Of a stretch of 64,000 nucleotides of DNA, positions 1 to 9,782 are shown piece by piece. The position numbers and the translations under genes are program-made. The notes below the pieces were generated by a model. That model saw nothing but the letters and a program-made list of their open reading frames with translations, had not been told where the DNA came from and ran no database searches. Origin of the DNA: Longimicrobiales bacterium. Its GTDB lineage: Bacteria; Gemmatimonadota; Gemmatimonadetes; Longimicrobiales; Gaopeijiaceae. The DNA is taken from positions 64,001 to 128,000 of the forward strand of contig CBDANQ010000060.1 in assembly GCA_965197725.1 (NCBI GenBank), read 5' to 3'. How positions within the stretch are numbered: the first letter of the stretch is position 1; the number at the start of each line of letters is the position of its first letter.

Positions 1-630
1 TCTGGTCGAGCGCGGCCTGGACCCGGGCAGGCGGCGGCTGTTCGTGATCGATGGCTCGAAAGCGCTCAGGAAGGCGATCGAGAAGGTGTTCGGCCAACGT
101 CACCCCATCCAGCGCTGCCGCAACCACAAGCTCCGCAACGTGCTGGGTCATCTGCCGAAGGATCAGCATCCTCAGGTGAAGGCGGCGTTCCGGGCGGCGA
201 TGAAGCTGGACGCGAAGCAGGGCGAGCAGAAGCTCGAGCAGCTCGCCCGATGGCTCGAGCGCGACCACCCCTCGGCCGCAGCCAGCCTGCGCGAAGGCCT
301 CAGCGAGATGTTCACCATAAACCGGCTCGGCCTCCCACCGCGGCTGAGGAAGTGCCTGGGCTCGACCAACCTGATCGACAGCACCCACTCGGGCGTAAGA
401 CGGAAGACCCGCAGGGTGACTAACTGGAAGAACGGAGCGATGGCCTTGCGCTGGGCTGCGGCCTCGTTCGTGGAAACCGAGAAGAGCTACCGGAGGATCA
501 TCGGCTACGACCAGCTCTGGATGCTCAGGGCCCACCTCGACGACCATGAACCGGTTGCCGAAATGAGAAAGACAGGCTAACCAAGAGACTCTCCGGCGCC
601 ACCACCTTCAACTGTCAGCGGGACACCATC
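1..630 (+). mobile_element. IS256-family element, right-hand part (5' end outside window), inserted in istB
   Basis: Matches 43719-44348 by eye; ends in CCTTCAACTGTCAGCGGGACACCATC (630), followed directly by istB codons AQSGRRVYYG. Confidence 0.93.
2..580 (+). CDS. IS256 (Mutator-type) transposase, C-terminal part
   Basis: DGSKAL, QRCRNHK and STNLIDS motifs; same protein as 43009-44298. Confidence 0.93.
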   Translation: MVERGLDPGRRRLFVIDGSKALRKAIEKVFGQRHPIQRCRNHKLRNVLGHLPKDQHPQVKAAFRAAMKLDAKQGEQKLEQLARWLERDHPSAAASLREGLSEMFTINRLGLPPRLRKCLGSTNLIDSTHSGVRRKTRRVTNWKNGAMALRWAAASFVETEKSYRRIIGYDQLWMLRAHLDDHEPVAEMRKTG

Positions 631-1157
631 GCTCAGAGCGGGCGCAGAGTCTACTACGGCGCTCTGGCCGACCTCATCACCTCGCTCGAAGAAGCCAAGA
701 CCACCGGCCAGCTGGGACGCCGCCTCAAGATCCTCACCTATCCTTCGCTCCTGGTCATCGACGAGATCGGCTACCTGCCGGTCAGCCAGACCGGCGCAAT
801 GCTCTTCTTCCAACTCATCAACCGGCGCTATGAGCGCGCATCCACTGTGCTGACCTCCAATAAAGGCTTCGAGGAGTGGGGCCAGATCTTGGGCGACGAG
901 GTCATGGCCGCTGCGCTCATCGATCGCCTGCTGCATCACTGCCATATCGTCAACATCCGCGGCAGCAGCTACCGGATGCGCAAGCACACCGACCTCTCCA
1001 AGATCCTCCACTCGCCTCCTGCGGAGTCGAGCCCTTCACCCCCGAAGAGAAAGAGAGCAAGAGCAAAGGAGAAAACGACGAACTAGAGGCTCGTCACCTC
1101 CGCCAAGTGTGCAATTTTCGATGGCCAGACCTGTGCAGCTTTCGATGGCCGTTGACA
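631..1157 (+). mobile_element. istB: IS21-family right end with 3' fragment of istB (631-1086)
   Basis: LLVIDEIGYLP / LTSNK / AALIDRLLHH; matches reverse complement of 18344-18870; terminal TTTCGATGGCC repeats ending ...GTTGACA. Confidence 0.92.
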
Positions 1158-1210: not shown

Positions 1211-1756
1211 ATGATTGAGTACTGGCGGCGGCTGGTGCGCAGGTTTGCGAAGCAGCCTGTTGGTGTCCGCGCCGCCTTGATCACGGCAGCAGCGGCATTG
1301 CCGACCTTGACCGCCGTGAAGTGGTACCGGGGCTATCGAGAAGTGCGAGCTGAGGAGCGGCGAATTGTCGCCCGGAATGATCTTGCAGCAGAGCTACTAC
1401 CTCATCTTCGCAGCCTGCAAGATTTGACCGAGTCTGTCCTTACGTCTCTCCGAACTAGCGGGGGACCTGACGAAACCACGATGGACTCCCTGCAGATCGT
1501 CGCAGAGGGATTGTGGGTTTCAGAGCGAGGGATTCGTACCCGGCTCAGCGAGGCTTACGGTGACTCGGTGGGCGTGCATTACTCAGAGACAATCCAGCGC
1601 GCGGATAGCCTGTTTCATGCGCTGTTGAGGTTAGCCGACCGCGAGCGTACGACCCCAGATGCTCTCAGTGCGCTGCGTGCCGAGATCTTTGGTCGGGCCC
1701 TGGAAGTGGGACGACGATCCATCGCTCTTCTGAACACCTTGATCGCGGCACACTGA
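1211..1756 (+). CDS. Hypothetical membrane-anchored protein, gene-cassette-like
   Basis: 181-aa ORF with N-terminal hydrophobic segment; preceded by GTTAGAC core (1164-1170) and followed by attC-like site; an upstream ATG at 1185 is out of frame. Confidence 0.6.
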   Translation: MIEYWRRLVRRFAKQPVGVRAALITAAAALPTLTAVKWYRGYREVRAEERRIVARNDLAAELLPHLRSLQDLTESVLTSLRTSGGPDETTMDSLQIVAEGLWVSERGIRTRLSEAYGDSVGVHYSETIQRADSLFHALLRLADRERTTPDALSALRAEIFGRALEVGRRSIALLNTLIAAH

Positions 1757-1810
1757 CGGAAGTCCTCAAGAGTCCATGCTCTCGCTGTGTTTGTGCAGTT
1801 GGTTCCTGCT

Positions 1811-1956
1811 TCCCAACACGTATCAGGCCCCCGGAATCAAGAGCGCGCAGCTGGCCCTACCCGCTGCGGCGTGGCGGGCGAGAGTAGGCGAGAGATTCTC
1901 GCGCTACGCTTGCGGTCACCACTGTTGTTGTGCAGCAGAATCGCGAAACGTTAGGC
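1811..1956 (+). other. attC-like recombination site with 21-bp insert at 1818-1838
   Basis: TCCCAAC ... GCAGCAGAATCGCGAAAC GTTAGGC; right end nearly repeated at 4305-4329, left end repeated at 2539-2577. Confidence 0.6.
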
Positions 1957-2120
1957 GGCTCCGCGAGCCATGTGCTGCATCGACCGCCATTCCCAGACTT
2001 TGCCGGCCCGAGAGTCGACGACCCTGACTTGCGGTGGTGTTGTCTCTGCCTCTGCCGCCTCGCCTCAAATCGAGCGGTCCCACATCGCGTCGTCAGGTAG
2101 GATAGTCGTTACCTTCCAAC

Positions 2121-2327
2121 ATGGATTTGACAACAGCTGAGCGACCCGTCGTTATCCGTGCCGTGGCGGCCTACCGCGAAGCCAAGGCGAAGCATCACGT
2201 CGGTCAGTTTCGTGGCCTGACGGCGGACGCGATTCTCGAAGAACTGGCTCCATCTCCCGTCCGTTGGACGGAACTGGCTGCGCTCGTGATCGCATCAGCT
2301 GAAGAGTCCAGTCGAAGGAAGCACTAG
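2121..2327 (+). CDS. Small hypothetical protein between attC-like sites
   Basis: 68-aa ATG ORF in cassette orientation; no recognisable motif. Confidence 0.3.
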   Translation: MDLTTAERPVVIRAVAAYREAKAKHHVGQFRGLTADAILEELAPSPVRWTELAALVIASAEESSRRKH

Positions 2328-2538
2328 TGTCCTGTGCGCGTCCTTACTCGGTGATCTCCGGGCCCAACTCGCCGAACCGTAGTAGGCCGAGGGAGGCTCT
2401 CTCGGCACTCGCACGCGGGATAGCCTAATGAGCCAGGTCGGCGGCGGTGCCCTCCGACGCATCGGTATCGGCGTCACGACAGCCTCTTAGGGCGCTCAGG
2501 ACTCCCGGCCTGCGTCGTGTTCTCCGTGGACCTGAGCT

Positions 2539-2580
2539 ATCTAACACTTATCAGGCCCCCGGAGTCAAGAGCGCGCATGT
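2539..2580 (+). other. attC-like left end (ATCTAAC) with 21-bp insert at 2546-2566; right end not found
   Basis: RYYYAAC followed by ACTTATCAGGCCCCCGGAGTC AAGAGCGCGCA, near-identical to 1815-1849. Confidence 0.5.
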
Positions 2581-2695
2581 CCCCCGGCGCGTCGCGGAGC
2601 GGCGCGTAATGAAGTGAGCGTCGGTCGTCGAGTCCTCTGACTTGGTTTCCGTCAACAGGTGCGAGCACTTCCGAGCTCTGCACCAAACACTTATC

Positions 2696-3005
2696 GAGGT
2701 TCAACCGCCGGGTGCCCTTCGAGGCGAGCTCGAAGGAGCGGCGGAGCAGGAGCCTGCTGTGGGCTCCTACGACCTAGAGAAATTCATCTGTGCCCTCGTG
2801 CCGTCCGACTCCATTCAAGGTGAGCAGGCTCGGGCCGAGAGGCGCCGGACCAGTTAGCTCCGGGCTCGGGTGAGGGGCAGAGTCCTGAGTTAGACCGACT
2901 TCGATGTGTGGGGAGCGGGAGGAGGCGTCCAATCAAGCGAGGCGGCTGTCAGGCATCCGGTGCCCGCTCGAGTTAGAAATCGGGGCTCGCGACCTCCCCT
3001 CCCCG
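2696..3005 (-). ncRNA. Predicted bridge/seekRNA region of the IS1111-type element
   Basis: About 310-bp non-coding region downstream of the transposase; minus strand contains CGCTTG (2939-2934) then GTCTAAC (2895-2889), matching the two halves of the attC target. Confidence 0.55.
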
Positions 3006-4052
3006 TCAGGTGCGTGTATAGAAGCGTTCGGTGTCGAATGCCTCCCCGTTCTTGAGCATGAAGTAGGTGGCGCGACCGATGCGAGCCGCGAGGATGCTGA
3101 GCGCCTTGCCCTTGCCGTGGCGGCGCGCGAGCCTCTTGAGATGGCCCTGGCCGCGGACGTTGTCGCGTAGGAAGAGGACGGCAGCCTCGCTGAACGCCCA
3201 CTTGAGGTGTGCGTTACCGATCTTGGCTCCTCCGCTGCCGACCCGCTTGCCTGCACTGCGGTGCTCGGGCTTGGCGAGTCGACAGTAGGAGCTGAAGCGC
3301 TGCACTGTGCTGAAGCGAGCGATGTCGTGGATCTCATAGAGCAGCGTGAGCGCCAGGATCCGACCGATGCCGGGGATGGTTCGGAGCCGCTCCAGCGTGT
3401 CGGAGTCGTGGACACGGGCTTCTTCTTCGACCGTACGCTCGAGTTCTCGGATCACGGGGTCGTAGCGATCGGCCAGGGCGAGGTCCGCCTCAATGGTCCT
3501 CTGGATCATGGGATCGTCGAACGCCTGGGCCAGTCCCTCTCGGTTCTTCTTGTAGAGGAGCTGACCCGGGGGCCGAGGCAGGTTGTACTGATGAAAGGTG
3601 TTGCGGACGTGGGCGAGGAGCTCGCCGCGCTTGCGCACGAAGTAGAGTCGGCGCCGGAGCACATCGCGCGTGGCTCGCATCTGGGGAGGATAGACGTAGG
3701 CCACCGGGAACGCACCACCACGCAGCAAGACCGCCGTCTTGTGCGAGTCGATGTGGTCGTTCTTGGCCTTGGCCCCGTGGATCGCCTTCATGTAGAGCGC
3801 ATGGCCGAGCACGAAGTGGATCTGCTCACGAGCACATAGATCGGCGAGCCAGTACCAGCAGAAGATGCACTCGCTGCCCACCACGAGGTCCAAACGGTAG
3901 GGCTCGAGGGCGCGAAGCAGTGCCTCGCGCTCACAGCGTAGCCTCTTGTGCAGTCGTATCTTGCCCTGGCCGTCCAGAACGCAGAGGTAGAGCGTGCGAG
4001 CGTGAAGGTCGATGCCACAGTAGTATCGATGCTGGCCGGTGTAGAAGCGCAT
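3006..4052 (-). CDS. IS110-family DEDD transposase/recombinase
   Basis: GIDLH, E, KNDHIDS (DEDD RuvC-like), IPGIG and SAGK motifs; 348 aa intact. Confidence 0.95.
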   Translation of the reverse strand: MRFYTGQHRYYCGIDLHARTLYLCVLDGQGKIRLHKRLRCEREALLRALEPYRLDLVVGSECIFCWYWLADLCAREQIHFVLGHALYMKAIHGAKAKNDHIDSHKTAVLLRGGAFPVAYVYPPQMRATRDVLRRRLYFVRKRGELLAHVRNTFHQYNLPRPPGQLLYKKNREGLAQAFDDPMIQRTIEADLALADRYDPVIRELERTVEEEARVHDSDTLERLRTIPGIGRILALTLLYEIHDIARFSTVQRFSSYCRLAKPEHRSAGKRVGSGGAKIGNAHLKWAFSEAAVLFLRDNVRGQGHLKRLARRHGKGKALSILAARIGRATYFMLKNGEAFDTERFYTRT

Positions 4053-4867
4053 GGTTCCCCTCCTGGGTTGGATGGATCGAGCGTCGCGCTCTGATCATTC
4101 CGTCCTCTCTGTGAGAGGTCCAGGAGGGGGCCTGCATGAGTATCAAGCCTGGGGACCAGTCCTGCGGGCAGGGAGATGTCGGAAGAAAATGACCTAGGTC
4201 GGCGGCACTTTCTCAGAGGCGCCAAGTAGCAGCGGGTCTTGCTGAAATGACCTTGAGGCCGCGACCCTCGCCTTGCGAGTAGCGCCTTAGGCACGCAATC
4301 TCCCGCAGCAGAATCGCGAGACGTTATCTGGAGTCGATTGCCATGACAGAGACCTCCCAGGAGGGCCTCGTCAGGTGATCCTCCCGCTCGTGTCTCCCTG
4401 TTGACCTCACCGTGAGCCCCCAGATCCTCTGGCTTCGCGTCTTCGTGGAAGGCGTGGTGATCGTCGGCCTTTCCGTCGGCATCATCGGAGAGTTGCTCTG
4501 TCATCCCTCAGGATGAGCGAGAACGCAGGTTAGGAGCGGGCACACCCGTGGATGCGACCCGAAGAGCGGGCCATTCTTTCAGCCCCTAACGCGTTACATA
4601 GCTCCGCGTAGGGTTGGGGCGCGTCGAGCGTGAACTCGGTGAGGGCGGCATGGCGACCCGGTGGCGGGCTGCCCGGACCCGACAGCAATCGCCTGCAGGA
4701 CGGGTCACCAATGGGCACGTGCTTCGGGTGTTTGCGAGGTCTTGCACCTGTCACAACCTTGGACCGGTCGAAACTCCCGACATGCGCAGAACGTGGGCTG
4801 ACGCGTATCATACCCAATCCCGACGCGCGCAGGTTGCTTGTGACGCGACCCGGAAGAGGATTACAGC

Positions 4868-5688
4868 ATGGCATCTTCGGTAGCGATCGTCACGGGCGCC
4901 GCCAGCGGCATCGGAAGACATTGGGCAGACGCGCTTCGGCGTAAGGGCTTCATGCTCGCTCTTGCGGATATCAACGGGGATGGGCTGCACACCGCGTTCG
5001 CGCAGGACGATCATGTCCGGCTACACAGGCTCGACGTGCGATCCGTGGAAGGCTGGCGGCGCATGGCCGAGGACACGGTCACTCGCTGCGGCGCTATCGA
5101 CTACCTCTTCAATATCGCAGGCGGCGGCAGTCCCGGGTTTCTGCTGGACGTTCCCATGGAACTGGTTGATACGACGATCGACGTGAACCTGAAGGGCCAG
5201 ATCTACGGGGTGAAGGTCGTGGGCGACATCATGGTGAAGCAGAGCTCAGGACACATCGTCAACATGTCGTCCTTGGCAGGGATCTCGCCCACTCCCGGCA
5301 ATGAACTCTACTCGGCCGCGAAGTGTGGACTCCGCTCCGTCTCCATCTCCACCGCGGTCCGCCTCCGAACCAAGGGCGTCTTCATGACCGTCATCTGCCC
5401 GGATCTAGTGAATACGCCCACGCTTGAGCGGCATCTGGATGCGGACCCCCTCGACGTGGCCCTCATCCACTCTGGTCCTGGGGCGCTCTCGGTCCAGCAG
5501 TGGAAGCCGCGCTTTGGCAGGCGGTCCGCATGCGTGCCCTCGAGATAGCGGTCCCACGCTCGCGTGGCTGGCTGGTGAAACTCAACAATCTGTTTCCACC
5601 CATCATGCTTCGACTCTACCGCCCCTTGGTGAAGAAGGGACTCAAACGACTTGAGCAGCTCAAACGGGAGCGGACGAAGCGGAGCTGA
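4868..5688 (+). pseudogene. Short-chain dehydrogenase/reductase, frameshifted near 5500
   Basis: TGAASGIG, NIAG and YSAAK motifs; C-terminus continues in another frame (5500-5688). Confidence 0.8.
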
Positions 5689-8315: not shown

Positions 8316-9782
8316 TTAGCAGTCCGTGGAAGAAATAGGTTCCCAGCGGATGATGGGTGGGAGAGAAGGCAGACACGCGGGGGCTGTGTTGTTGTGCAAG
8401 AAGCGGGTTTTGGGGTCTGACGAGGCGATATTCGGCCCAAGGAAGGCGAAATAGCGCCGAATACGGCGGAAAAAGCGCGAGACGCGGGTTGTAACCTGAG
8501 TTGCGAGCGCAGCTTGTACGGTAGCGAGGCCCTGTAACGCACGGGGGGTTCCAACCCCGAACCGCTTGCGCATGAGAAGGCCGAGGTTGAAGGCCGCCGC
8601 GTGGATCAACATCCGTTTTCGAATCTCCTCCTGGCCCCGTATGTGGACGCGACGCAGCCCTCCGGTCACAAGCAAGTGCGCAAACCCCCGCTCCACCTTC
8701 TCGCCGCGCTGGCGCAGCAGCCGCATCCCCCGGTTGCCGCGGATCCGGCGGCGGTTGTCGTAGGTCGGCTTCTGCGCGTCCCGGTTGTTCTTCCATTTCC
8801 GGCGCCCGCGGTTGGGCTCGCTCACATAGCTGCGCAGCTCCCGCTCCTTCACGCCCGTCATGGTCTTGTTCGAGTGGTAGCCTTTGTCGGCCACCACTTC
8901 CTCGGGCTCTACCTGCACTACTTCCAGCTGCCGCTCTGCCTCGTCCAGCGTGTTGGGCAGCGACGCCACATCTCCCCCGTCCATCGTCTGCACCGTCACC
9001 GCCACAAGCGCACCGGTCTCCATGTCGACCGCCTGCTCCAACTTGTGCGCCAGGCGCGTCCTGCCGTCCTTCATCTTCGTGATCCGCGCCTCCGGGTCGT
9101 GCGGATGCACCCAGTCCTTGTTCGAGCCCTTCTTCGGACGCTTCCGGTCCAGCGTCGTCAGATCCTTGCGCGTCGGCGTCTCGATCCCCGACGCCCGGGC
9201 CACCTGCTCCAGCCATTCATCGTAGCCCAACCCGTCGTCGCGCCGCACGATCGTGCGCATCGCCGCATTCGCCTCCAGCGTCGTCGAGTCGACGCCCAGC
9301 GTCTTGCCGCTCAGCAACCCCGACCCCTTCAGCAGCTCCAGCACCCGCCCGAACACCGCCGCGTGCGCTTCCACGCTCAGGCGCTTGCGCGTCTTCGACA
9401 GGGTCGAATGCTCCGGCGGGTTCTTCGCCCACCCGTATCCCAGAAACTCACGCAACGACAACGAGTCCCCACACCGCCAGGCAATGCCCCGCTCCGAGCC
9501 GATCCCTTCGAGGTAGCCCACCATCATCATTCGGAAATACACCCCGGGAGCAATCCCCGGCCGACCCCGATTGTCCGCGTAGAACTCACGGCATGCCTCT
9601 TCCGCGAACTCGTCAAACCCGCTTTTCGCCAGAAGCTCGTTCAAGGCCCAGTAGAACGGGTTGTCCAAGGCCCGAATCTCGCTCGCCACCACGAACATCT
9701 CGCCCTGCCGAGCCTCGGGCCGCTTGCCTACCGCCATCGCCGTCCTCGCTGCAAAAACCCTCGTGTCCTCCTGATTTAACAC
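8316..9782 (-). CDS. DDE transposase (DUF772-like N-terminus, IS1182/IS5 type)
   Basis: GRPGIAP, SERGIA, PEHSTLSKTR, VDST, ADKGY and VERGFAHL motifs; real start may be ATG 9737. Confidence 0.9.
   Translation of the reverse strand: MLNQEDTRVFAARTAMAVGKRPEARQGEMFVVASEIRALDNPFYWALNELLAKSGFDEFAEEACREFYADNRGRPGIAPGVYFRMMMVGYLEGIGSERGIAWRCGDSLSLREFLGYGWAKNPPEHSTLSKTRKRLSVEAHAAVFGRVLELLKGSGLLSGKTLGVDSTTLEANAAMRTIVRRDDGLGYDEWLEQVARASGIETPTRKDLTTLDRKRPKKGSNKDWVHPHDPEARITKMKDGRTRLAHKLEQAVDMETGALVAVTVQTMDGGDVASLPNTLDEAERQLEVVQVEPEEVVADKGYHSNKTMTGVKERELRSYVSEPNRGRRKWKNNRDAQKPTYDNRRRIRGNRGMRLLRQRGEKVERGFAHLLVTGGLRRVHIRGQEEIRKRMLIHAAAFNLGLLMRKRFGVGTPRALQGLATVQAALATQVTTRVSRFFRRIRRYFAFLGPNIASSDPKTRFLHNNTAPACLPSLPPIIRWEPISSTDC

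Follow-up and report, generated by a model that had tools for sequence, protein, structure and literature searches.

An IS1111-group insertion sequence of a Longimicrobiales bacterium with putative RNA guides for an attC-type target and for its own right end

Introduction

Where does the transposase-bearing element near the start of a 64,000-nt stretch of Longimicrobiales DNA begin and end, and do short segments of its non-coding region read the site that it occupies? The stretch, referred to here as the window, comprises positions 64,001 to 128,000 (forward strand) of contig CBDANQ010000060.1 in assembly GCA_965197725.1, and coordinates below are window positions unless a contig is named. A preliminary description had proposed an IS1111-type recombinase element inserted in an attC-like site, with RNA guides matching that target. 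The analysis reported here indicates, with a probability that we put at roughly 0.85, that an IS1111-group element, present in four identical copies, occupies window 2547-4143 and that its non-coding tail would supply RNA guides reading an attC-type target and the element's own right end.

Extent of the element and its true ends

The genome carrying the window (G000; 3.0 Mb, 61 contigs, 89% complete) was searched with window 2500-4500. Four full copies were found, the window copy included, with 100% identity from query 42/44 to 1648/1649, which corresponds to window 2541/2543 to 4147/4148; past a few bases outside ∼2543-4148 the flanks of the four copies are unrelated. Since the copies are identical within these limits and diverge outside them, the left end on the plus strand lies at 2547 and not at 2689, and positions 2682-2695 are internal to every copy. 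The element body is thus window 2547..4143 (minus strand), ∼1,599 bp including one copy of the CA/TG core, and the core CA is found at 2545-2546 on the left and at 4144-4145 on the right. The orientation relative to the target is identical in all copies of the genome.

On the plus strand, the left junction reads TCTAA-CA-CTTATC (2540-2552) and the right junction GAGTAT-CA-AGCC (4138-4149). The left flanks of the four full copies are TCTAAC, CCTAAC, TCTAAC and CCAAAC, followed by ACTTATCAGG..., and the flanks after ...GCATGAGTATC at five right junctions are AAGCC, AAGCG, AAGGG, AAGCG and AAGCG. The right end proposed in the preliminary description (4144) was therefore correct to within the 2-nt core. 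Its left junction, ACCAAAC-ACTTATC, is present as a sequence at 2682-2695 and lies 142 bp from the true end, so that the real ends depart from the proposed pair 2689/4144 on the left side only.

Public read evidence consisted of assembled contigs from four runs of four studies, in which circles and RNA ends are invisible. Depth steps and loose contig ends were observed at 2540-2543 and 4145-4148. In run X1 the contig depth was 40-85 inside the element and 2-6 outside, and the flank switched at 2540-2543 in X1, X3 and X4 and at 4148 in X4 and X6. No depth step was present at 2689 in these contigs. Three contig joints (2577 to 4305, 4145 to 4304 and 4148 to 4303) are most simply explained by other sites at which the element end and the attC-type repeat are both found. 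The window element is an intact, multi-copy IS1111-type insertion sequence.

The features at the junctions are as follows; from here on, left end and right end are named in transposase orientation, in which 2547 belongs to the right end.

4126..4143, minus strand: left end, with the tail ATACTCATG (4143-4135) and the subterminal inverted repeat CAGGCCCCC (4134-4126); from the sequence, with a layout that recurs in relatives
2547..2568, minus strand: right end, with a -35-like TTGACT (2568-2563), the subterminal inverted repeat GGGGGCCTG (2560-2552) and the tail ATAAG (2551-2547); from the sequence
2540..2546, plus strand: left target half TCTAA plus core CA, giving the attC R''-type box TCTAAC; from the flanks of the four full copies
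4144..4150, plus strand: core CA plus right target half, AGCCT here and AGCG in three of five right junctions

The element accordingly starts with TG-ATACTCATG-CAGGCCCCC and finishes with GGGGGCCTG-ATAAG-TG; the repeats CAGGCCCCC and GGGGGCCTG are set in from the left and right ends by 9 and 5 nt, respectively.

Besides the full copies, the genome holds a broken copy (contig C32), a truncated copy (C40) and an extra 160-bp piece (C52). The broken copy is without the non-coding tail and is disrupted internally near window 3480. The truncated copy (C40:20128-20717, locus L006) corresponds to window 2452-3043 at 99% identity, carries the 95-bp flank of the window copy, is cut within the 3' end of the transposase gene and abuts a sequence resembling window ∼1120-1200, which looks like the end of another insertion sequence; it arose by segmental duplication or is an artefact of assembly. 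At window 1815-1849, after CCCAAC, a solitary 35-bp sequence resembles the element right end together with its inverted repeat (94%); it lies inside a repeat (window 1808-1960) that ends in GTTAGG / GCAGCAGAATCGCGAAACGTTAGG and folds no better than shuffles (z -0.1). This look-alike is left over from a lost copy or from a relative.

The transposase and its family

3006..4052, minus strand: transposase/recombinase gene, 348 aa, with a DEDD RuvC-like domain and a Tnp domain

The reading of this open reading frame as an IS110-family transposase was confirmed. The 348-aa protein matched PF01548 (E 5.1e-9), PF02371 (E 2.5e-19) and NCBIfam NF033542 ('IS110 family RNA-guided transposase'; 187.7 bits against a cut-off of 140), and it has the domain layout of the IS110 family (N-terminal DEDD/RuvC-like and C-terminal Tnp). 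Its C-terminal part aligned to IS621 (8wt6) with an E-value of 1.9e-6 (phmmer). When the C-terminal serine motif of the family, G--P----S(T)G, was tested, S266 was found aligned under the serine of the IS621 E-S-G stretch, in the local sequence K-P-E-H-R-S-A-G-K, the next residue being A instead of G. SAGK is invariant in four clade members; the serine of the E-S-G stretch is the catalytic one in IS621.

Three traits of the IS1111 group were present: a non-coding region that is longer downstream (459 nt) than upstream (91 nt) of the gene, 9-bp subterminal inverted repeats (group range 7-17 bp), and the same CA at both junctions of the four copies, i.e., no target duplication. A long downstream non-coding region and subterminal repeats are described as features of the IS1111 group in PMC11187229 and PMC11208160. 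On these features, the window element is assigned to the IS1111 group of the IS110 family.

Relatives of the element

In a sample of the phylum, five of 301 genomes (the window's own included) matched at E <= 1e-40. A scan of species genomes confirmed at least 512 relatives among 559 pattern matches listed, of which the best 80 were kept, yielding 78 loci with 51-96% identity. Among these best 80, the nearest relatives were found in metagenome-assembled genomes of Longimicrobiales and other Gemmatimonadota, and further hosts included Desulfobacterota, Balneolales, Holophagales, Marinobacter, Pseudoalteromonas and more. Plasmid records contained relatives with 49-59% identity from Ca. Manganitrophus, Vibrio campbellii, Pseudoalteromonas and Alteromonas. 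Against Klebsiella and E. coli plasmids, tblastn gave ∼27% identity over ∼57% of the protein; the best identity among the IS110-family matches listed for Klebsiella, E. coli and P. aeruginosa plasmids was ∼27-31%, and the surroundings of the P. aeruginosa plasmid match (H21, 31% identity) were not those of an integron.

The guide analysis started from 83 loci (the window's own, L027, L036-L038 and the 78 from the species-genome scan), oriented by tblastn. Both ends could be assigned via the inverted repeat in 58 of the 83, and 52 loci in 37 clusters were kept after filtering (second right-end core base G, tail of 250-700 nt, inverted repeat of at least 7 bp); L039 and L050, with mis-assigned ends, were removed by hand. 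A common plan was shared by the 52 loci: left flank, (T/G)G, ATAxT..., gene, tail, inverted repeat (7-12 bp in the relatives kept), a 4-6-nt tail, (T/G/A)G and right flank. The right flank was mostly TTAxx or TTGxx, with exceptions such as L042, L066, L094 and L111. In some copies the first core base differs between the two junctions (TG vs GG or AG; L027, L049, L081, L087-L096, L102 and others), only the G being constant, and such a mismatch may be the trace of a heteroduplex after strand exchange.

Candidate guide segments in the 459-nt tail

An unbiased listing of exact matches of at least 6 nt between each tail and its own junctions returned four recurring places, designated T1, B1, T2 and B2.

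2971..2977, minus strand: guide T1, TCTAACT, the antisense of G-TTAGA (right target flank with the second core base before it)
2932..2940, minus strand: guide B1, TCGCT-TG-AT, same sense as the left target flank, the core and the first 2 nt of the left end; includes CGCTTG
2686..2698, minus strand: guide B2, TC-GATAAG-TG-TT, same sense as the right-end tail, the core and 2 nt (TT) matching the target
2850..2858, minus strand: motif T2, GCTAACTGG, conserved, in an internal loop of the second RNA domain (see below)

Each segment was scored against its cognate flank and against the flanks of the other clusters (20000 permutations, n = 48-51); shared ancestry of the relatives inflates the significance of this test. 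With AACT as anchor, T1 was located in 49 of the 52 relatives, 20-35 nt past the stop codon, with matches such as TCTAAC in the window's own copy, AAGCCTAAC in L088 and CGCCCAAC in L087, and it scored 1.85 with the cognate right flank against 1.12 with non-cognate ones; none of the 20000 permutations was as high. B1 was located ∼60-145 nt into the tail and varied with the left flank (CCGGC-TG-AT in L027, CCCCG-TG-AT in L045 and GCGACT-TG-AT in L102), the exact matches being GCTTGAT in the own copy, CCGGCTGAT in L027, CCCCGTGAT in L045 and GCGACTTGAT in L102; its scores were 2.04 for cognate and 1.22 for other flanks (0/20000 permutations as high). Together, T1 and B1 spell CGCT-TG-TTAGA, which is yCTAAC/AAGCG on the other strand.

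B2 was found ∼280-420 nt into the tail and is internal in all copies. It varied with the right-end tail (ATAAG, ATAGG, TATG, TAGA, ATATA, ATCGG), with a score of 4.53 against 2.39 and again 0/20000 permutations as high, and gave the exact matches GATAAGTGTT (own), GATAGGTGTT (L048), ATATGTGTT (L037) and TATATATGTT (L080). Instead of a variable flank, nearly all relatives keep the context xATAxx-TG-TTTGGT/TTTGCT around it, and neither an inverted repeat nor a -35 adjoins it. B2 is read as a putative donor guide for the right-end side. The preliminary description had taken this very segment for the left end and had identified no donor guides; in that respect it still holds for the left-end side, for which no guide was found in the tail. 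For three separate segments, T1, B1 and B2, the direction is clear: they appear to change with target and donor.

Two further observations concern the DNA around B2. In contig C52 (19500-19800; loci L003/L008), a 143-bp stretch running from the outer right end to the donor guide is tandemly doubled, each unit being bounded by AACACTTATC; this could reflect recombination between the real end and the guide-encoding DNA, or slippage between the 10-bp repeats. Around window 2676-2733, runs X3 and X4 gave short contigs (depth up to 19) that share only ∼30-57 nt near the donor guide and then diverge; related elements in those communities probably share the conserved donor-guide stretch.

T2 had the form xTAACTGG in all 48 relatives (of 52) in which the pattern AACTGG, AACTGA or AACTAG picked a site, and it hardly followed the right flank (1.56 vs 1.25; 396/20000 permutations). 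In the Holophagales elements T1 is CCCAACT, matching TTGGG, while T2 stays CATAACTGG. T2 faces a TTGA(G/A)T-CGG stretch in the internal loop and looks like a second, frozen copy of the target loop. Three candidate assignments were tried and not retained: T2 as a second right-flank guide, which was weak at 396/20000; T2 as a left-end guide, which fitted two to three of six positions by eye; and a GATGAAT-type stretch before TTTCTAG as left-end donor guide, which fitted six of nine relatives by eye and was dropped.

The alternatives of a modular element or an inner end

The position of B2 bears on the alternative that survives best, namely that the element is composite, with a core insertion sequence at 2689-4143 and a separable 143-bp passenger at 2547-2688, the inner site serving as a working alternative end as in ISPpu9/ssr9. 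The tandem 143-bp unit of C52 and the solitary outer-end look-alike at 1815-1849 speak for it, as does the formation of several kinds of circle by ISPpu9 reported in PMC12288879. The C52 duplication is equally explicable by recombination between the 10-bp repeats, however, and neither an element copy without the module nor a free-standing 143-bp module was found in the genome. The inner site moreover lacks an inverted repeat, and the sequence around it (TC-x-ATAxx-TG-TTTGGTGCAGAG) is conserved in relatives ranging from Gemmatimonadota to Gammaproteobacteria, unlike real flanks, which vary. We regard a modular element as improbable.

Still harder to sustain is the anatomy of the preliminary description, with an end at 2689, an insertion between ACCAAAC and AAGCC, and CGCTTG followed 38 nt later by GTCTAAC as an IS621-like guide pair. 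Both motifs exist at the positions given, CCAAAC-ACTTATC (2683-2695) is junction-like and has 10 bases in common with the real junction at 2543-2552, and the 8-mer TCTAACTC occurs twice in the tail, at 2970-2977 (T1) and at 2887-2894, a repeat that a given 8-mer would show in 460 nt with ∼0.7% probability by arithmetic. The stretch 2547-2688 is common to all copies, however, the contig depth shows no step at the inner site, and that site is without the inverted repeat and the -35. The first motif, CGCTTG at 2939-2934 (minus strand), stands as part of B1, which varies with the left flank in relatives. The second fared differently.

2889..2895, minus strand: the formerly proposed second guide, GTCTAAC, in a variable linker between the two RNA domains; unsupported as a guide

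The sequence is there, but it is replaced by TCTCAC in L040 (96% amino acid identity) and by unrelated sequence in L039 (94%) and L027 (68%), so that the linker copy of the 8-mer is lineage-specific. The conserved partner of CGCTTG is instead TCTAACT at 2977-2971, located 5' of it. CTAAC occurs three times in the tail (2976-2972, 2893-2889 and 2857-2853), and the pairing chosen earlier was therefore not unique; by arithmetic, any one 6-mer should turn up ∼0.1 times and any one 7-mer ∼0.03 times in a 460-nt tail. The order of the guides, with T1 5' of B1, is the reverse of the IS621-like order that had been supposed and matches the seekRNA order given for IS1111 elements in PMC11187229. B1 and T1 bear out the proposal made about the core, B1 including both of its bases and T1 one. 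Taken as a whole, the earlier observations remain good for the element, its plus-strand right end and the motif positions, and not for the left end or the fold of this copy's restored site; the interpretation stands as an IS1111-type element with 3' non-coding stretches matching both halves of an attC-type target, without its left end, its second guide and its foldable attC.

Predicted structure of the tail RNA

2910..3004, minus strand: first RNA domain, a hairpin with an internal loop carrying T1 and B1 (equivalent to a seekRNA or target-binding loop); RNAalifold, 11 relatives
2635..2882, minus strand: second RNA domain, multi-branched, with CTCTG(C)/GTCAGAG as its closing stem; RNAalifold, 11 relatives

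For the first domain, the initial 105 nt of the tail were aligned from 11 relatives of Gemmatimonadota type; the consensus fold had 26 pairs, five of them with compensatory changes, and T1 and B1 are on opposite sides of its internal loop. In this domain 93.7% of the cells were paired, compared with 42-57% when partners were slid, and the covariation score was reached by none of 500 shuffles. The second domain comprises 41 pairs, eight with compensatory changes; its closing stem is invariant, so covariation is silent on that stem. In the consensus fold B2 is unpaired in the multiloop between two branches, and T2 lies in the internal loop of the first branch. The placement of B2 fits the remark of Durrant et al. 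(2024, PMC11208160) that the donor-binding nucleotides of many IS1111 members lie in a multiloop.

The target site as a possible attC

4305..4328, plus strand: genome repeat copy GCAGCAGAATCGCGAGACGTTAt, which ends attC-like sites elsewhere; seven copies in the genome at up to four mismatches, ending here in GTTATC and not GTTAGA

The target consensus, yCTAA-CA-AGCG (yCTAAC/AAGCG), corresponds to the R'' box plus spacer of an integron attC. The restored site of the C52 copy folds as an attC-like hairpin (z -4.4), built from the pairings TCTAAC/GTTAGA and GGGCTTGAACC/GGTTAAGCCC with bulged bases. A look-alike of 117 bp, uninterrupted and with TCTAACAAGGG, is present in C38 (z -3.3) and another just upstream in C52; the right flank in C32 (AAGCGATTGCTGC...GCAGCAGAATCGCGAGACGTTAGG), the only readable side there, pairs likewise by eye. 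An integron integrase gene is present as well (TIGR02249, 410.6 bits; cut-off 265), ∼0.6 kb from the broken element copy in the region C32:61015-63975. A candidate partner box was found at 26 of 49 relatives' sites. A first strict attC scan of the genome caught one of the two repeat families. Our reading is that the RNA would specify an R''-box-plus-spacer sequence, that attC sites are where this sequence is common, and that sites which merely match are used as well.

Predicted junction promoter and proposed mechanism

When right end and left end were joined in silico across TG, a TTGACT, a 17-nt spacer and a predicted -10 GATACT spanned the junction; this predicted promoter arises only with the outer end (2547). 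It was computed in 37 of 37 cluster representatives, with a -35 of TTGACx in 34, TTGATT in two and TTGCCT in one, a spacer of 17 or 18 nt, and a -10 of the form GATxxT (GATACT, GATAAT, GATATT, GATCCT or GATCGT). The circle junction is thus predicted to build a promoter, as is known for the family.

The proposed course of events is the following. The element would leave as a circle, whose junction of right end, TG and left end would form the promoter TTGACT, 17 nt, GATACT, and the tail would be transcribed, strongly so from this junction promoter once the element is circular. The tail RNA would stay bound to the recombinase, its first loop picking the target and its second holding the joined ends, and strand exchange at the TG/CA core would insert the element without target duplication. 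The B1 overhang AT (into the left end) and the B2 overhang TT (into the target) resemble the handshake dinucleotides of IS621, which pair only once the strands have been swapped; in PMC13626964 the right guides of IS621 are followed by such dinucleotides. AT and TT are invariant here, so that the resemblance to handshake guides offers no test.

Evidence weighing against the proposed reading

Several results count against this account and should be weighed with it. The restored site of the window copy itself (flank to 2546 joined to 4146-4332) is not attC-like against shuffles, with z -0.6 compared with -4.4 for the restored C52 site, and the pairing of its left end with 4305-4329 claimed in the preliminary description does not form. 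The flank in C29 has no GTT-type partner box within 230 nt at up to one mismatch, and the three candidate boxes in C59 (same limits) are unconvincing. Only five of 49 relatives' sites passed a strict hairpin test (z below -2 and at least 5 of 7 R''-box positions paired to the far end), a crude and conservative test. Folded as a single sequence, the tail stretch 2670-3005 was no better than shuffles (z -1.09), and window 1500-5000 gave no relevant Rfam match at E up to 1, only three sub-threshold chance matches. T2 is conserved yet fits neither the right flank nor the left end well. A left-end donor guide was not found in the tails: antisense matching to the opening 10 nt of the left end reached 6-8/10 at best, at positions scattered from relative to relative. 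The guide-flank matches are short, T1 of the window copy giving three variable bases beyond GTT and B1 three beyond the core; many relatives score only 1-2; and the relatives are non-independent, so the permutation counts overstate significance. Neither the circle junction nor an empty version of the window site was seen in the public contigs, in which circles are not visible. For transcription, RNA ends and protein binding the account relies on analogy with ISEc11, ISKpn4 and IS621, and RNA-labelled public runs contained at most 0.10 of the stretch's words.

The shortness of the matches (only 5-10 nt), the near-constancy of the right target half (GTTAxx) across the clade, by which part of the T1 match never varies, the absence from this site of a hairpin, which a structure-reading protein would need, and the usual recognition of attC by shape might suggest coincidence or shared ancestry, with the protein alone recognising attC-like DNA; but cognate pairings exceed non-cognate ones for three separate segments, and RNA was required and reprogrammable in experiments on same-group relatives described in PMC11187229, so that we give this explanation hardly any credence.

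Comparison with known systems

Elements of the IS1111 group that target attC have reportedly been known since 2008-2009, from Tetu and Holmes and then Post and Hall. The window element resembles the IS1111-attC members ISKpn4, ISPst6 and ISPa25 in its DEDD transposase of ∼340-350 aa, its subterminal inverted repeats and the long non-coding region behind the gene, as well as in a hairpin just after the stop codon, a top-strand-pairing stretch 5' of a bottom-strand-pairing one, and a target resembling one end of an attC. In the work of Siddiquee et al. (2024, PMC11187229), the seekRNAs of ISKpn4 and ISPst6 were purified, mapped and matched to the target and that of ISPa25 was predicted from sequence, and all IS1111 members tested had the top-strand match 5' of the bottom-strand match, the reverse of IS110-type elements. 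A claim that the mechanism is unstudied would find no support: attC-targeting seekRNAs have been demonstrated experimentally for these two elements. Compared with them, the tail here is longer (459 nt), and the hosts are environmental Gemmatimonadota, Desulfobacterota, Balneolales, Marinobacter and others (among the best 80 of at least 512 relatives). The N-terminus and non-coding sequence of ISKpn4/ISPst6, as given in the supplement of PMC11187229 and compared by eye only, contain none of the motifs of this clade. By this visual comparison, the clade looks distinct from ISKpn4/ISPst6 and may form a separate lineage.

With the IS621 bridge RNA, as described by Durrant et al. (2024, PMC11208160), Hiraizumi et al. 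(2024) and PMC13626964, the tail RNA shares two domains, one target-reading and one end-reading, the reading of both strands, a 2-nt core common to donor and target, and 2-nt extensions across the core that resemble handshake guides. In the attC orientation, the IS621 counterpart of T1 would by analogy be the left target guide; B1 would stand for the right target guide and B2 for the right donor guide, each with its handshake. The present element differs from IS621 in that its RNA lies in the right end instead of the left and runs in the reverse order relative to the gene, its donor guide is placed in a multiloop, a second donor guide was not found, the inverted repeats are long, and the protein similarity is weak and restricted to the C-terminal domain (E 1.9e-6). 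ISPpu9/ssr9 (Pares-Guillen et al. 2025, PMC12288879) is similar in that the end sequence recurs internally and a terminal segment is tandem or separable; here, unlike there, the inner repeat belongs to an RNA domain as a conserved part, and a free module was not found in the genome.

A bolder version of the main proposal can be formulated, which we consider unlikely, if less so than the modular element discussed above. It would make the relatives a phylum-spanning, attC-seeking IS1111 clade apart from ISKpn4/ISPst6/ISPa25, with an RNA wired unlike that of IS621: the donor domain would combine a right-end guide bearing a 2-nt target overhang with the invariant xTAACTGG, resembling a second target guide and not a left-end guide, and would fit the integrated right junction (right end, core, target) better than the circle junction. 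The guide DNA would then constitute an internal pseudo-end, explaining the 143-bp duplication in C52.

Surroundings of the element

The start of the window seems rich in insertion sequences, with transposase-looking open reading frames, by eye, in window 1-1100 and 8316-9782 (e.g., an IstB-like ATPase fragment at 799-1086 and a 488-aa open reading frame at 8316-9782). Just upstream of the element, window 2293-2337 gave a sub-threshold match to hammerhead type I (22.7 bits against a gathering score of 34, E 0.033), which is probably due to chance.

Implications

The present element leaves the known mechanism unchanged and corrects the anatomy. It would offer a case from nature in which both junctions can be compared with four short stretches of RNA, and the clade to which it belongs occurs in many environmental phyla; the known range of attC-seeking RNA-guided recombinases would thereby reach past the clinical examples. 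There is also a warning here for annotation: a donor guide copies the element end and may be mistaken for it. For integron biology, it points to a mobile element able to interrupt cassette recombination sites in the chromosomal integrons of Gemmatimonadota.

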